60,222 bases of DNA. It comes from Candidatus Aceula lacicola. Its GTDB lineage: Bacteria; Omnitrophota; Gorgyraeia; Zapsychrales; Aceulaceae. Each line of letters starts with the position of its first letter. Positions within the stretch are counted from its first letter, which is position 1. A program made the position numbers and the translations under genes. The notes beneath the pieces were generated by a model. That model made no database searches. It was given only the letters and a program-made list of their open reading frames with translations, and was not told the origin of the DNA. The DNA is taken from assembly GCA_030765785.1 (NCBI GenBank), contig JAVCCC010000008.1, positions 1 to 60,222 of the forward strand. Direction: 5' to 3'. This document shows, one piece after another, positions 4,534 through 16,801 of the stretch.

Positions 4534-4563
4534 ATAGTAGCTTAAACTATCGATTATGTACAA
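4534..4563 (-). promoter_or_regulatory. Putative sigma70 promoter of the helicase operon (leaderless)
   Basis: TTGTAC-18 nt-TACTAT, then 7 nt to ATG 4526; no SD. Confidence 0.55.
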
Positions 4564-4655
4564 CATATAAAAACACCCGCCTCCACGTCACTTACAAGGC
4601 TGATTTTGATATCCAATGGATATCCCTAGTTGGGCATTTAGCGCTTTAAAAAAAC

Positions 4656-4897
4656 TTACCTATGCACAGGTTGCTTTCTTGCATGTTTCAACTTCTTGTT
4701 TAATTTCTCAATAAAACTAATTATGCATACGCCAATAAAAATAAAAATCAAAATAACAAGCACAAAAAACTTCGTATATCACCTTTCGAAGTTTGCCTTA
4801 ATATCATCAATCAAATATTTTGAATACCCTTTTGCTTCCAAAATACTATCAAAACTACCATCAAAACAATTTCTAAAAATTACTAAACAAATTGAAA
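4656..4897 (-). pseudogene. 5'-truncated relic of a membrane-anchored protein with an in-frame TGA
   Basis: Frame reads ..FDGSFDSILEAKGYSKYLIDDIKANFER*YTKFFVLVILIFIFIGVCIISFIEKLNKKLKHARKQPVHR* (TGA at 4779-4781); no start codon before the repeat at 4898. Confidence 0.4.
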
Positions 4898-11366: not shown

Positions 11367-11804
11367 TTATTTTGTTTCTATTTTTATTTGTACTCCATCG
11401 CCTACATTAACATTATAAGCATCAGCAAATCCAGCATTAACTTCCAAGACATACTGTGCCAAATCATCCGTTCCATAAGTCGGACATGTTTCAGAAAAAC
11501 ATGGCGGGGCAGTCTTCTTAATATAAATAATTTCGCCAATGCTATTGAGCCAAATCATGTCTAGAGGAATAAGTGTATTTTTCATCCAAAACTTTGCCTT
11601 AGACGGTCCAGGAAAAACAAAAAGCATTCCCTTGCCTTTATCCAAACGTTCTCGATACTGCAGGCCTTCAGACAATTTCTCCGACGTTTGAGCAACTTCC
11701 ACTACAACGCACTTCGATTCAAAACACACTTTTGATACCTGGCCTTTGCACCCAATTATCAAACCGGACATTGCAACCAAGCCAATAATAAATACATGCC
11801 TCAT
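11367..11804 (-). CDS. DUF192 family lipoprotein
   Basis: Lipobox IIGC; GLQYRE.L..GMLFVF, FWMKNTLIPLDMIW, YVLEVNAG. Confidence 0.9.
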   Translation of the reverse strand: MRHVFIIGLVAMSGLIIGCKGQVSKVCFESKCVVVEVAQTSEKLSEGLQYRERLDKGKGMLFVFPGPSKAKFWMKNTLIPLDMIWLNSIGEIIYIKKTAPPCFSETCPTYGTDDLAQYVLEVNAGFADAYNVNVGDGVQIKIETK

Positions 11805-11805
11805 C

Positions 11806-13146
11806 TTACAATCCTTCCTTTTCTGTCAAACGAATATAATCGCGAAATGTCGTCTCCCCTGTAATTTCTTGATTAACCACTGAAATGCGTTGTGTTGTAG
11901 CCGGATGTGTTCTCCAATAGCTAAACCTACGTATCGGCTTTTTAGCATTAATCTCATGTAACTTCTCTAAAAACTTTTTCATTTCGTTAGGATCGTACCC
12001 AGCCTTTTCCATATACTTAACAGACAAACGATCCGCTAAAAACTCATCCTCTCTTGCATATCCTGTAAGAATAGATCCAAATGCCAAATTAATTCCTGGC
12101 GCCATGCTAGAATTTCCCGTCGTAATCGCCAAAACTTGAAGAAAATTATATCCATACTGAGCCTGCAAACTTTTCATTGCATGCTTCGCTGTAATATGAC
12201 CTATTTCATGAGCAATGACACCCGCAAGCTGATCATCATTATCTACCGCATCAACCAAACCTTTGTATAAATAAATAAATCCACCCGGAAGCGCAAAAGC
12301 GTTAACCTCATCTTTGTTAATCACCTGAACTGTATAAAAAATTTCTACACGGTCGCTTACATCTTCAATACGTTTTGCAATTCTTGATACACGCTCATTA
12401 ACATCAATATCTGTATTAATTTCATACTCTTTATTAATATATCGTGCGAGAGAATCTCCGATAGCAACTTCTTTTTCTGTACCAAAAAAAAGCGTTTCTT
12501 GCTGTTGTGTTGCTAAATTATATTCCGTTGTCATGCACCCTGAAAAATATACACATACTAAAAGCATTAAAATCTTTACGCCAAATTTTTTTAACATTTG
12601 TTTTAGTCGAACCATAGGAAGACCGACCACATTAAAATAACATCCCTCAATTCTTCGAATAAAAAATGCACCCCTGCCTTCAATATCAAATCCACCTGCC
12701 TTGCTCCCCGGTGGCGTAATCTTATAATAATTATCAATTTCTTGATCACTCAAGGGAGTCATATAAATTTTTGTTTTTTCAAACCCGACAGACTTCTTTT
12801 TTGTTTTAGCATCCACAATCGCTATTCCTGAATAAACCCAATGTGGATTTTGTGAAAGCATCTTTAAGCTTTTCTTTGCCTCTTTTAAATTCTTTGGTTT
12901 TCCAATAATTCTTTTACCCTTAGCATATACAAGTGTGTCAGATCCAATAACAATACCCTCTTTGAGACGCGATGAAACATCAAGCGCTTTTAAAAGTGCA
13001 TTTTTCTTAACAAGCACTGCACACCCTCTAGAGGAATCTGTATATTCTTTGACTTTACTTGAAATAACGTGAAACGGAATGCCTAATTTCTTAAGCAATC
13101 GTTTACGAGGAAATGACTGTGAGGCTAGTATTAACTTGAAATTCAT
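11806..13146 (-). CDS. Maf NTP pyrophosphatase fused to an M48 metallopeptidase
   Basis: Residues about 1-190 are Maf (LILAS, GSDT, KAGG.DIEG, NVVGLP), then KILMLLVCVYFSGC, then M48 (NAFALPGG, AHEIGH, EFLAD, THP). Single open frame. Confidence 0.9.
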   Translation of the reverse strand: MNFKLILASQSFPRKRLLKKLGIPFHVISSKVKEYTDSSRGCAVLVKKNALLKALDVSSRLKEGIVIGSDTLVYAKGKRIIGKPKNLKEAKKSLKMLSQNPHWVYSGIAIVDAKTKKKSVGFEKTKIYMTPLSDQEIDNYYKITPPGSKAGGFDIEGRGAFFIRRIEGCYFNVVGLPMVRLKQMLKKFGVKILMLLVCVYFSGCMTTEYNLATQQQETLFFGTEKEVAIGDSLARYINKEYEINTDIDVNERVSRIAKRIEDVSDRVEIFYTVQVINKDEVNAFALPGGFIYLYKGLVDAVDNDDQLAGVIAHEIGHITAKHAMKSLQAQYGYNFLQVLAITTGNSSMAPGINLAFGSILTGYAREDEFLADRLSVKYMEKAGYDPNEMKKFLEKLHEINAKKPIRRFSYWRTHPATTQRISVVNQEITGETTFRDYIRLTEKEGL

Positions 13147-13700
13147 TAATCTAGAAAATCAGATATTTGAAAAATAAATTGAAACGGACAATTATATTTA
13201 GCAATCGCTTCTTTAGCGCCTTCATCTCTGTCGACAATACAAATGGCTTTAACGACGTCCATTTTGGCATTTTTCATCACTTCCAAAGATTGCACAAAAG
13301 CTTTTCCTGTCGTAGCAACATCGTCAATCAAAATAACTTTAGAGCCTTTTGGAATATCAGGTCCTTCAATTTGCTTCTGCTTGCCATGCGCCTTTGGAGC
13401 CTTACGGATAATAAATGTACTGACTGGTTTTTTATTTTCGAAACTCTGCGAGGCGATGGCACCCACGAAAGGATCCGCGCCTAACGTTGGCCCTCCAATA
13501 ATCGAAACACCGTCATCCTTGACCATGTCCAAAATAATCTTAGCGCAAAGATATGCGCCTTCTGCTGATAGCGTTACACGACGCGCATCAATATAATAAT
13601 CGCTTTCCTTACCAGAGGAGAGAATAATTTTTTCTTTAAAAAACGCATCTTTTTTAAGAATTTCTAAAAGACGTGCTCGATCTTGATCAAGGGAAGACAT
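13146..13700 (-). CDS. pyrE: Orotate phosphoribosyltransferase
   Basis: LSSGKESDYYID, RKAPKAHG, ILIDDVATTG. Confidence 0.95.
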   Translation of the reverse strand: MSSLDQDRARLLEILKKDAFFKEKIILSSGKESDYYIDARRVTLSAEGAYLCAKIILDMVKDDGVSIIGGPTLGADPFVGAIASQSFENKKPVSTFIIRKAPKAHGKQKQIEGPDIPKGSKVILIDDVATTGKAFVQSLEVMKNAKMDVVKAICIVDRDEGAKEAIAKYNCPFQFIFQISDFLD

Positions 13701-13880: not shown

Positions 13881-14612
13881 ATGTCGACTTCTTTTTTAGA
13901 ACAAATCACAAACGGACTTCTTTCTCTAGTCTATCCAGATAATTGCACCATTTGCAAATCCCCTCATACCAACAATCCGTTTTTTATCTGCACGCCGTGC
14001 CAAAAAATGATCACACTCAATCTGCCTCCTTTTTGCGCCAAATGTTCTCGGCATCTTAGAAATCCCGAAAAAAATATCCTATGTCCTCAATGCCAAAAAA
14101 CCAATCCTGTTTTCGACCAGGCTTGGGCTGCGACACGCTATACAAATGCCATGAAGAATCTTATTCATCTATTTAAATATAAAAATAAAACTGCCCTTTG
14201 TCATTTATTCTCCAACATAATAATTTTGTTTATCAAAAATTATCATATTAATATGAATCAATATGATTATATTATATCTATTCCTCTGCACCCTACAAAA
14301 CTACGCGAACGCCAATATAATCAAACTGATCTGCTTGCTGAAACGCTATCTAAAGAATTTCACATCCCATTATCCAAAAATAATCTCATCCGCCAAAAAT
14401 ACACAAAAACACAAGCTTTACTTAATGAAAAAGAGCGCTGGACAAATACAAAAGACGCCTTTAGAATAAGACATCCATCAAACTTTTTAGGGAAATCTAT
14501 CCTGATCGTGGATGATCTTATTACAACGGGCGCAACGGTTTGCGAAGCTGCACATGCCCTAAAACGAGCCCAAACAAAATACATAGGAGTGTTGGCGTTG
14601 TCCATTACCTAA
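13881..14612 (+). CDS. comF: ComF family protein (double zinc ribbon plus PRTase fold)
   Basis: CxxC pairs, IPLH..R.YNQ, LIVDDLITTGAT. Confidence 0.9.
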   Translation: MSTSFLEQITNGLLSLVYPDNCTICKSPHTNNPFFICTPCQKMITLNLPPFCAKCSRHLRNPEKNILCPQCQKTNPVFDQAWAATRYTNAMKNLIHLFKYKNKTALCHLFSNIIILFIKNYHINMNQYDYIISIPLHPTKLRERQYNQTDLLAETLSKEFHIPLSKNNLIRQKYTKTQALLNEKERWTNTKDAFRIRHPSNFLGKSILIVDDLITTGATVCEAAHALKRAQTKYIGVLALSIT

Positions 14613-14615
14613 CAA

Positions 14616-15710
14616 ATGAAAATCTTACGTAATTATATATTAGCAGAATGTGTCTTACCGTTTATTCTATCACTATCCGTTTTGACTAGTGTTTTTTTGC
14701 TCGGCAATTTGATCAAACTTACCAACATGGTTATCAACAAAGGTGTAAGTCTAGCCCTTATCGGACAAATTTTTATATACTATATCCCTTTCTTTTTGAC
14801 TTACACGCTTCCTATTTCTTGTTTGGTGGCAGTCATCCTGACCTTTGGTCGACTCTCAAACGATAATGAAATCTTGGCTATGCGTGCAAATGGCATTCGT
14901 CTCAGAAAGCTTCTGTGGCCTGTTTTTGTCTTAGGCCTTATTTTAAGTCTCTTTTCAATCATCTTAAATATTCGAATTATTCCTCATGCTTATCATCAAC
15001 AACGCAAACTTTTAAAAGAAGTTGGCACAAAAAATCCGACTGCTCTTCTAGAGGCTGGAACGTTTATTAAAGATTTTAAAGACCAAATTCTTTTTATTTA
15101 CCGTATTGAAGGAAACAAGATGTACAACGTGCGCATTTACCAACCCCAGCCTGATGGCAAAATGACGCGTACCATTACCGCCAAAGAAGGTGAATTTACC
15201 CAAGTGCCTGGCGAGAACAAAATTAAGCTTAAATTAATCAACGGTACCAGCGATGAACCAGACTTAGAAAATCCTAATAATTTTTATAAATTAAAATTTA
15301 ATACTTTTTTCCGCACACTTGATTTATCACAAACTGATAATAAAAAAATCGATAAAAAACCTAAAGGCATGACCTTAGAAGAAGTAACGGACAAGATTAA
15401 AGAGATGGATTCCTTAGGCATTGATACCACGCCTTTAAAAATCGAATTTCACAGGAAACTTGCCTGGGCATTCTCAGTCTTAGTATTTATGATGCTCGGC
15501 TTTCCTATTGCGGTTGTAACTCATCGAAGAGAAAAGACTGCCAATGTCGCTTTAGCGATGCTTTGCGCAGCAAGTTATTATCTATTAACTTTGGGCTGCG
15601 AAGCTCTTTGTATTCAAAAAATTGCACCCATCGGCATTACGATGTGGATGCCTAACATTATTGGCGCAACCATCGCCTCTATATTAAATTATCGATTATG
15701 CGTATCATAG
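14616..15710 (+). CDS. lptF: LptF/LptG family permease
   Basis: ILRNYI start, PISCL..FGRLS.DNEILAMRA.G, C-terminal W.PNII. Confidence 0.85.
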   Translation: MKILRNYILAECVLPFILSLSVLTSVFLLGNLIKLTNMVINKGVSLALIGQIFIYYIPFFLTYTLPISCLVAVILTFGRLSNDNEILAMRANGIRLRKLLWPVFVLGLILSLFSIILNIRIIPHAYHQQRKLLKEVGTKNPTALLEAGTFIKDFKDQILFIYRIEGNKMYNVRIYQPQPDGKMTRTITAKEGEFTQVPGENKIKLKLINGTSDEPDLENPNNFYKLKFNTFFRTLDLSQTDNKKIDKKPKGMTLEEVTDKIKEMDSLGIDTTPLKIEFHRKLAWAFSVLVFMMLGFPIAVVTHRREKTANVALAMLCAASYYLLTLGCEALCIQKIAPIGITMWMPNIIGATIASILNYRLCVS

Positions 15711-16801
15711 AACGTTATCTCTTAGGGACCATTGTTACTATCTTTCTTTCGGCACTCACTATCTTCTGTTTTTTATATGTGCTCATCGACTTGGCTAGTA
15801 ACTTGGATGAATTTATCCGACAAAAAGTCTCCATAGAAATCTTAATTCAGTATTATCTTTCGTTTTTGCCTATCATTATTGCACAGACGTCTCCTTTAGC
15901 GTGTCTAATCGCATGCCTTTTGACCTTTAGCCATGCCAATAGCAATAATGAAATTATTGTTTTACGTTCAGGGGGTTTAAGTTTTTGGCGAATTGCAAAA
16001 CCTGCAATTTTCTTTGGACTCCTCGTTTCTATTCTTATGTTTTGGGTCAATGAACGTTTTGTCCCGCAAGCCACGTCTATGTCACAATCCATTGAAGATG
16101 AATACCTTATTCTTGAAGCTGATGCCATAAAAAAGAAACAAGTTATCGATGACCTAACATTCTATGGACTTAAAAACCGATTGTTTTATATTGATAAATT
16201 TGACCCTGGTGATTTTTCTTTGCATGGCATCACTATTATCGGGCAAGACGAGAACCAACAAATTATAGAAAAAGTTGTCGCCTTAAATGGAAAATGGACA
16301 GGCATTGCTTGGAAATTCTATCGCTTGCAAATCACAAATTTCGATATCCCCGGAGACACGTCCACTGAAAGTGTGAGATATTACGATAACAAATTAATGG
16401 ATATTAAAGAAACTCCCCAAGATTTCTTACGCCAACGCTTAGATGTCGATTCTATGAATATCAAGCAACTTCATCAATACATTAAACGCTTTGCGCGAAG
16501 TGGAGCACAAAAAGCATTAAACAATCTAAACGTTGATCTTCATCAAAAGATTGCATTTCCGTTTAGTAACCTCGTTATTTTACTTGTTGGGCTTCCTCTC
16601 GCTTTGATGACTAGCCGACGAAAAGCGCTCACCTTTACATCTCTAGGGATTGCGATTGGTGTTGGATTTATTTTTTATGTGCTAAATGCGGTAGGATTGG
16701 CTTTTGGAAAAGGAGGACTGCTCCCTCCAGCTCTCTCTGCATGGATGACTCCAGGCATCTGCCTTTTAGTATCATTCTACTTAATCAAAACAAAGTTCTA
16801 A
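15698..16801 (+). CDS. lptG: LptF/LptG family permease
   Basis: RIIERYL, NEIIVLRSGGLS, KIAFPF, AWMTP. Confidence 0.85.
   Translation: MRIIERYLLGTIVTIFLSALTIFCFLYVLIDLASNLDEFIRQKVSIEILIQYYLSFLPIIIAQTSPLACLIACLLTFSHANSNNEIIVLRSGGLSFWRIAKPAIFFGLLVSILMFWVNERFVPQATSMSQSIEDEYLILEADAIKKKQVIDDLTFYGLKNRLFYIDKFDPGDFSLHGITIIGQDENQQIIEKVVALNGKWTGIAWKFYRLQITNFDIPGDTSTESVRYYDNKLMDIKETPQDFLRQRLDVDSMNIKQLHQYIKRFARSGAQKALNNLNVDLHQKIAFPFSNLVILLVGLPLALMTSRRKALTFTSLGIAIGVGFIFYVLNAVGLAFGKGGLLPPALSAWMTPGICLLVSFYLIKTKF

Follow-up and report, generated by a model that had tools for sequence, protein, structure and literature searches.

A Maf nucleotide pyrophosphatase joined to an M48 peptidase through a predicted internal lipoprotein signal in Omnitrophota

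Positions 1 to 60,222 of contig JAVCCC010000008.1 from Candidatus Aceula lacicola (Omnitrophota), the stretch of 60,222 nt referred to here as the window, contain a single gene that joins a complete Maf nucleotide pyrophosphatase to an M48 peptidase through a segment with the make-up of a lipoprotein signal peptide. This gene is a genuine fusion of two neighboring operon genes and is conserved over a large Omnitrophota clade. Its product is probably made as one chain, whose C-terminal half would be exported by Sec and processed by Lgt and LspA at the internal lipobox. To our knowledge, bacterial signal peptides, and those of lipoproteins especially, are treated as strictly N-terminal, and prediction tools and annotation pipelines assume that they are. 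The fusion is an arrangement of known parts that is unusual and testable.

Architecture of the fused protein

The gene is one open reading frame (ORF) on the minus strand, with an ATG start and 446 amino acids (aa) plus stop, in the order Maf, internal lipoprotein signal, M48. The initial annotation had read it as a complete Maf domain, a basic n-region with a short h-region and lipobox, and an M48 domain with HEIGH, ExxAD and THP motifs, a description that Pfam, NCBIfam and the translation all bear out. The features of the protein are as follows.

11806 to 13146, minus strand: whole fused ORF (ORF listing, Pfam, NCBIfam; junction matched by independent contigs)
12583 to 13137, minus strand: Maf nucleotide pyrophosphatase domain, aa 4-188 (Pfam PF02545, TIGR00172, PDB relatives, AlphaFold2)
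12538 to 12597, minus strand: signal-peptide-like segment MLKKFGVKILMLLVCVYFSG, aa 184-203, with a basic n-region (the end of Maf) and then a short h-region
12595 to 12597, minus strand: Met184 codon, candidate internal start (ATG at 12597-12595, inside Maf helix 178-187)
12535 to 12546, minus strand: lipobox F-S-G-C, aa 201-204; the Cys204 codon (12537-12535) encodes the predicted lipidated residue 1 of the mature protease
11809 to 12537, minus strand: predicted mature M48 lipoprotein, aa 204-446 (Pfam, NCBIfam), with the Pfam core (aa 250-426) at 11869-12399
12196 to 12210, minus strand: zinc-binding motif HEIGH, aa 313-317 (translation)
about 12029 to 12043, minus strand: third zinc ligand E368 and D372, within EDEFLAD (translation)
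11902 to 11910, minus strand: T413-H414-P415, the THP motif (translation)

The segment between the two domains reads MLKKFGVK-ILMLLVCVYFSG-C in the window. Across an alignment of 114 fused homologues, to which the residue conservation given below also refers, the lipobox cysteine is present in 114/114. Position -1 is occupied by G (102), S (8) or A (3), hence by one of these three in 113/114, and position -3 by L, F, I or V in 95/114. The uncharged stretch before the cysteine has a median length of 16 residues and is just 12 residues long after K191 in the window protein; the net charge over the 10 residues that precede it is +3 or +4. The composition of a Sec/signal peptidase II (SPII) signal (lipobox, uncharged h-region, basic n-region) is therefore present. 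Its usual N-terminal placement, with the cysteine ~15-35 residues from the start, is not, as the cysteine is residue 204 of the ORF; only a start at Met184 would restore that placement, and such a start is impossible in several fused orthologues. By its make-up, the junction is predicted to be a Sec/SPII signal and not a permanent transmembrane anchor. A plain membrane anchor needs no cysteine, so the invariance of this residue favors a lipoprotein signal, and purifying selection maintains the cleavage and lipidation motif.

Structural modeling with AlphaFold2 (AF2) on the 114-sequence alignment gave a mean predicted local distance difference test score (pLDDT) of 82.9 and a predicted template modeling score (pTM) of 0.54, with two confident domains that lack a fixed mutual orientation. 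The h-region is modeled as a separate 12-residue helix (192-203, pLDDT < 50) apart from both domains, and Met184 lies inside the last helix of Maf (178-187).

The N-terminal half is a true member of the Maf family by sequence, matching PF02545 over the full profile (positions 1-187 of 187; E 1.3e-49, 168.9 bits, cut-off 27) and TIGR00172 (maf, NCBIfam) with 147.3 bits against a curated cut-off of 117.15. Its relatives in the PDB are 1ex2, 4heb and 4p0e, and the domain is modeled with pLDDT 80-97. S9, S11, R14, E34, K53 and D70 do not vary, and T71 hardly does; in YhdE and other Mafs, the nucleotide-binding and catalytic residues comprise an S/R motif close to the N-terminus, an E, a K and the catalytic D of the DT motif. 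At the nucleotide site, the fused clade carries the motif GGFDIEG (window 12676-12696, aa 151-157), in which F153 is invariant and D154 and I155 are nearly invariant. The same site reads SYDIQG or SYGIQ in the more distant proteins P0122 and P0240. The Gln has a role in YhdE, and its change to Glu might shift substrate preference. P0240 itself (423 aa) contains, as judged by eye, two Maf domains in tandem on one chain and is unrelated to the M48 fusion. Stand-alone Mafs in a library of representatives at 50% identity share the ending …(L/M)LKKFGVxxL, with L (15), M (10), I (4) or V (3) at the position of Met184. With this ending shared, the n-region corresponds to the ordinary basic C-terminus of Maf.

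The C-terminal half is likewise a true member of its family by sequence, an M48 peptidase that matches Peptidase_M48 (PF01435) over aa 250-426 (E 3.3e-33, 115.5 bits, cut-off 20.3). H313, E314, E368, D372, H414 and P415 show no variation, and H317 and T413 almost none. Among PDB entries, 3c37 ('Peptidase, M48 family') matches best (E 3e-38), with BepA (6sar) at 1.6e-20. In the LoiP model (NCBIfam NF052399), profile positions 10-245 of 247 are matched by aa 197-429, and an alignment that opens at profile position 10 implies that the M48 half starts with its signal peptide. The scores are 74.8 bits against an equivalog cut-off of 365 for LoiP, and 108.5 bits against 570 for BepA (NF052400); no tetratricopeptide repeat (TPR) domain is present. 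With both equivalog cut-offs missed widely and TPR lacking, the protease appears related to LoiP and BepA and an orthologue of neither. The mature N-terminus that follows the cysteine (window 12511-12534, aa 205-212) is very conserved as C-x-T-E-Y-N-L-A-T-x-Q-Q-E: N210 is invariant, and E208, Y209, L211, A212 and T213 are conserved at 90% or above. Stand-alone relatives show C-A-T-x-Y-N-P-A-T-x-x-x-E at the same site. In the AF2 model, this segment forms a β-strand (206-210) of the protease domain.

The fusion is genuine and widely conserved

The stretch occurs in 24 public metagenome runs, 23 labelled salt lake and 1 marine. Over 12300-12900, a region that includes the junction (about 12540-12620) singled out for verification in the initial annotation, Logan contigs built independently from the data of other salt-lake runs (X5, 19.7 kb; X17, 5.6 kb) show 0 differences. 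In a search space of 5.8 billion proteins, the best 120 clusters at 90% identity share 52-100% identity with the window protein, are ~440-450 aa long and all contain both Pfam domains, and every organism-named cluster among them belongs to Omnitrophota. The conservation of fusion and lipobox cysteine, which the initial annotation had suggested as a check, is thus seen in all 120 clusters for the two domains and in every aligned homologue for the cysteine. In the 50%-identity library, the fused form persists down to 42-44% identity (P0122, 453 aa; P0124, 433 aa), beyond which come stand-alone M48 proteins (~260 aa) and stand-alone Mafs (~190 aa).

An artefact (an assembly or sequencing error, a recent loss of a stop codon in a single genome, or a programmed frameshift that ends Maf at an A-run) can be given next to no credence. 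A run of seven A (TTAAAAAAATTT) does directly follow Met184, with a stop in the +1 frame two codons on, and contigs from two low-coverage runs end near 12552-12615. Against this, the long contigs that come from independent runs do not differ at all over the junction, and the same open frame occurs in >120 clusters and in 25 related DNA loci, observations that, as far as sequence data go, rule out sequencing error. Programmed frameshifting or transcriptional slippage at the A7 run was rejected on comparison of 26 fused genes, in which the length of the A-run varies from 2 to 8 and the positions of out-of-frame stops are unconserved.

Fused and split forms interleave

Scans of GTDB genomes and JGI metagenomes recovered 25 fused-frame loci and 7 orthologous loci in which Maf and M48 are two genes (L006, L019, L020, L021, L088, L089, L090; loci from the scans are labelled L, and library proteins P). 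As the outcome that would tell against its proposal, the initial annotation had named relatives with two separate genes together with a fusion reducible to a single-genome stop loss or sequencing error; two-gene relatives do exist, but the fusion is real and conserved, so that this refutation does not hold. Fused and split loci have in common the neighborhood pyrE-(x)-maf-M48-(DUF192). In split loci, Maf terminates at …MLKKxGVxxL* and M48 opens with a complete MK… signal of its own (MKYFFTLCFLLSTLCLTGC, MKRWWWIVIVFVLSGC and others). The two genes typically overlap as ATGA or TAATG; L006 has instead a spacer with a GGGAG Shine-Dalgarno (SD) sequence. Fused genes have no additional n-region, and their distance from GV to the cysteine is ~7 codons shorter than in split loci, which argues that split loci are not frameshift errors of fused genes. 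L019 in particular was considered as a frameshifted fused gene and rejected, given its GV-to-Cys stretch longer by ~7 codons and its complete signal. In two of the split loci, the M48 N-termini are long and odd: L020 carries a repeated CGCGAAT-rich insert (4560-4720), and L021 (4570-4740) repeated 'GAGCACA(T/A)G/CAAGAGCACA' motifs. Repetitive DNA insertion seems, from these sequences, to have accompanied fission in both.

Phylogenies were built from the M48 domain (54 rows) and from Maf and M48 joined without the junction (33 rows), and both resolve two deep, fully supported clades. The clade of the window holds 8 fused and 6 split rows, and the other clade 18 fused and 1 split. The two states interleave: supported branches require no fewer than 3 switches, and the parsimony count is 5. 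Since the fused form dominates both deep clades, a fused ancestor is favored, and a fused ancestor with at least 3 later fissions would be the simplest reading of the trees, the alternative being repeated fusion. The interleaving also implies that the halves work when physically separate, which argues against an obligatory single-chain device spanning the envelope. With respect to a polyprotein, the independence of the units is therefore backed by the split orthologues and the at least 3 fused/split switches, and cleavage is a prediction. The merger of what were overlapping genes (ATGA type) was probably tolerated and nearly neutral, and the fusion fixes the two products at 1:1.

Related mergers were observed in the same material. 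P0133 (326 aa) carries Maf, the same MLKKFGV…CSGC signal and lipobox, and DUF192, with no M48 by Pfam. In L091 (1495-2300), Maf stops at …GINTL* and is followed by an ATGA-overlapping DUF192 with a signal resembling those of signal peptidase I. The Maf C-terminus seems, on this evidence, to have been reused as n-region for more than one exported passenger. Other upstream genes form stop-free frames with M48 lipoproteins. L023:589-2292 (plus strand), from an Omnitrophota-like metagenome-assembled genome (MAG), combines a lipid A acyltransferase (PF03279, aa 21-305) with an M48 lipoprotein; the joint reads …HNRWKGVKSAIICALFFLAVSCFLFSQC followed by GAEYNLAT, and the sister locus L026 is a stand-alone M48. 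A stop may have been lost recently in this frame, or a GTG may serve as an in-frame start. L036:3332-4726 (plus strand), from an Omnitrophota MAG, joins DUF4416 (aa 11-168) through a basic linker to an M48 lipoprotein; the joint reads …FILSFFILVLASVMLNGC followed by VTIYNPAT, with no Met ahead of the hydrophobic core. This locus hints that upstream cytoplasmic genes merge with M48 lipoproteins in Omnitrophota.

Proposed processing and alternative readings

Under the reading that we favor, the ribosome would make one 446-aa chain whose Maf part (aa 1-183) would fold in the cytoplasm. The basic C-terminal helix of Maf (…MLKKFGVK) would serve as the positive n-region of a lipoprotein signal, and the short hydrophobic core (ILMLLVCVYFSG) would engage the signal recognition particle and Sec as a type II (N-in/C-out) signal, so that the M48 half would be translocated. 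Lgt would then add diacylglyceryl to Cys204, and signal peptidase II (LspA) would cut between G203 and C204. The predicted products are a LoiP/YcaL-like M48 lipoprotein protease of the envelope and a Maf that retains the signal peptide as a C-terminal membrane tail. Signal-peptide clearance of the RseP/SppA type may later free Maf, a step that for RseP is pure conjecture here. RseP is known to clear signal peptides out of the membrane and also cuts FecR, an N-in bitopic protein (PMC8144685); lipoprotein signal peptides are cut by LspA and then by Eep/RseP (PMC7157817).

Several points weigh against this scheme. That the C-terminal half is exported and lipidated, that LspA cuts the chain and what then becomes of Maf are all inferred. 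The 60,222-nt window contains no lgt, lspA or rseP, and literature searches found no natural substrate with ~180 folded residues ahead of an SPII signal. The window gene also has an ATG at codon 184, and its product from there would be a canonical SPII precursor with a textbook 20-residue signal. Many genes of the genome are SD-less, about one third having a clear SD, which makes a missing SD a weak counter-argument to such a start. These last points favor internal initiation, whereby ribosomes would start at Met184 and a normal prolipoprotein (MLKKFGVKILMLLVCVYFSG followed by C…) would be the main source of protease, the full-length chain being minor or non-exported. We regard this as unlikely. 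Methionine does occupy position 184 in 103/114 fused proteins, but it is equally frequent in split Mafs, where a start for M48 is impossible: the codon is ATG (16), TTG (1), ATA (3), ATT (3) or CTY (3) in the 26 fused genes, and ATG (7) or TTA (1) in 8 split Mafs. A canonical start codon is thus found in 17/26 fused genes against 7/8 split Mafs (Fisher p = 0.39), the direction being opposite to that expected of an internal start. On this alignment, Met184 is a Maf residue that is no better conserved where it is usable as a start. Among the 9/26 fused genes with ATA, ATT or CTY at this codon, 5 have an ATG or TTG 3-4 codons off (L017, L018, L086, L028, L082), which would suit internal initiation; the other 4 (L009, L010, L015, L083) lack any canonical in-frame start from which the product would have a charged n-region. 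In these four, protease could come only from the full chain, with the signal working internally.

The initial annotation had remarked that no clear SD precedes the internal Met, and the anti-SD duplex before Met184 is indeed at background level (-2.7 kcal/mol; median of internal ATGs -2.15). Duplexes of -5 kcal/mol or lower precede 31% of the gene starts in the window versus 12% of internal ATGs, and the start of Maf itself lacks an SD. Because SD use is weak in this genome, its lack before Met184 is uninformative on an internal start. Upstream of position 184, no SD-like motif is conserved in the fused genes, which counts against internal initiation. No RNA runs that contain the gene and no protein data were found. 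Moreover, with no stop after Maf the full-length chain would be made anyway, with the same functional signal. An in-frame internal start, one of the options raised in the initial annotation, is not required; it holds as a possibility for this genome, which has the ATG and many SD-less genes, and fails as a universal explanation, as several fused orthologues have no usable start.

A further reading is that the protein stays uncleaved, the hydrophobic stretch being a permanent signal-anchor that holds Maf in the cytoplasm and M48 in the periplasm as one chain, a trans-envelope enzyme or signaling device. Among bitopic proteins, an N-in/C-out topology with 100-180 aa in the cytoplasmic N-domain is common (the ToxR, RodZ and FecR types), and the fusion has been kept over deep divergence. 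However, a plain anchor would have no use for an invariant lipobox cysteine or for G/S/A at -1, the run of uncharged residues is short by that standard, repeated fission leaving a soluble Maf means that the tether is dispensable, and the AF2 model shows no packing between the domains. This reading is accordingly improbable, more so than internal initiation. Between the remaining options of the initial annotation, trans-envelope coupling is the least supported, and a polyprotein split by Lgt/LspA, the reading favored here, gains from the invariant lipobox, the signal-length stretch and the fused genes that have no internal start.

Genomic neighborhood

The placement of the fused gene in an operon with pyrE and DUF192, as first annotated, is confirmed by the ORF listing, Pfam and conserved synteny. 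Its immediate neighbors are as follows.

13146 to 13700, minus strand: pyrE (orotate phosphoribosyltransferase-like), upstream operon gene (ORF listing, Pfam)
11367 to 11804, minus strand: DUF192, downstream operon gene (ORF listing, Pfam)

The start of Maf overlaps the stop of pyrE by 1 nt (TAATG), and the stop of the fusion lies 1 nt ahead of the DUF192 start. DUF192 has a lipoprotein signal of its own (…LIIGC), and its SD (AAGGAAGGA) lies within the last codons of M48. The synteny of pyrE is kept in 21 related loci, and that of DUF192 in the closer clade. No second Maf or M48 is encoded in the window. Divergent from the pyrE operon are a ComF-like protein with a double zinc ribbon and a phosphoribosyltransferase domain (13881-14612, plus strand) and a tightly packed LptF/LptG pair (14616-15710 and 15698-16801, plus strand, 13-nt overlap). 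As machinery for the export of lipopolysaccharide (LPS), the LptF/LptG pair at 14616-16801 confirms a diderm envelope with an LPS outer membrane, with which an envelope role of the protease fits.

Implications

The fusion is already visible in public annotation, where both Pfam domains are precomputed and the NCBI name is 'Maf family nucleotide pyrophosphatase'. Literature searches found no paper on a Maf-M48 fusion or on natural internal lipoprotein signals. Both outcomes agree with the initial annotation, which allowed that the architecture might be listed in domain databases and knew of no functional study.

If the proposed processing is correct, Sec, Lgt and LspA would accept deeply internal signals in vivo, the fusion would be a bacterial case of a two-compartment polyprotein and a ready-made substrate for probing the limits of LspA, and the envelope proteome of Omnitrophota would be under-predicted. 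If the fusion is merely tolerated, it would still illustrate cleanly how a cleavable linker can make the fusion and fission of genes neutral. A bolder version is conceivable and rather doubtful: the maturation pathway of lipoproteins would serve Omnitrophota as an inbuilt processor of polyproteins. LspA would act as a site-1 protease on the internal lipobox, about 200 residues from the N-terminus, Maf would be tail-anchored at the inner face of the membrane, the presence or absence of an RseP-type site-2 cut would determine the amount of free Maf, and the maturation of envelope lipoproteins would be coupled 1:1 to an enzyme of the nucleotide pool or of cell division. Within this version, P0133, in which Maf and the same signal carry DUF192, would suggest a general principle of a 'cytoplasmic enzyme as a giant n-region'.

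Comparison with known systems

The protease half has the fold of M48 enzymes and their HExxH…E zinc site in common with LoiP/YggG and YcaL of E. coli, 3C37 and BepA. With short M48 lipoprotein peptidases it further shares a lipobox ahead of the domain, an alignment to LoiP that runs from signal to end, and an LPS outer membrane. The differences are that the fusion falls far short of the LoiP and BepA cut-offs, it has no TPR, its signal is internal (184 residues from the N-terminus), and its mature N-terminus, C-x-TEYNLATxQQE, is specific to the fusion clade.

The Maf half resembles the Maf/YhdE type (B. subtilis Maf, 1EX2/4HEB; E. coli YhdE, 4P0E, and YceF, 4JHC) in its end-to-end domain, conserved residues and …LKKFGVxxL ending. 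Known Mafs end with the last helix and are soluble, with a length of ~190 aa, whereas the fusion continues into a signal core and a protease that is predicted to be exported, and carries GGFDIEG as its nucleotide-site motif.

An engineered precedent may exist for the internal signal. Going by the title alone, Hayashi, Chang, Chang, Giam and Wu reportedly found in 1985 (J Biol Chem 260:5753, as cited in PMC2114505) that prolipoprotein signals, once internalized, still undergo modification and processing in E. coli and B. subtilis. The likeness, also as far as that title goes, is a lipoprotein signal behind an N-terminal extension. Those were laboratory constructs, whereas the fusion is natural and conserved and has a complete enzyme, predicted to be folded, ahead of the signal.

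The closest parallel for the fate of the N-terminal part is found in the pheromone peptides of enterococci and staphylococci (Lgt, LspA, Eep/RseP, EcsAB), in which the part released by LspA is likewise useful and a site-2 protease acts on the remnant (PMC7157817; PMC8144685). In those systems, the product is an exported peptide of 7-8 residues, whereas the product proposed here would stay in the cytoplasm as an enzyme of 203 residues bearing a hydrophobic tail.

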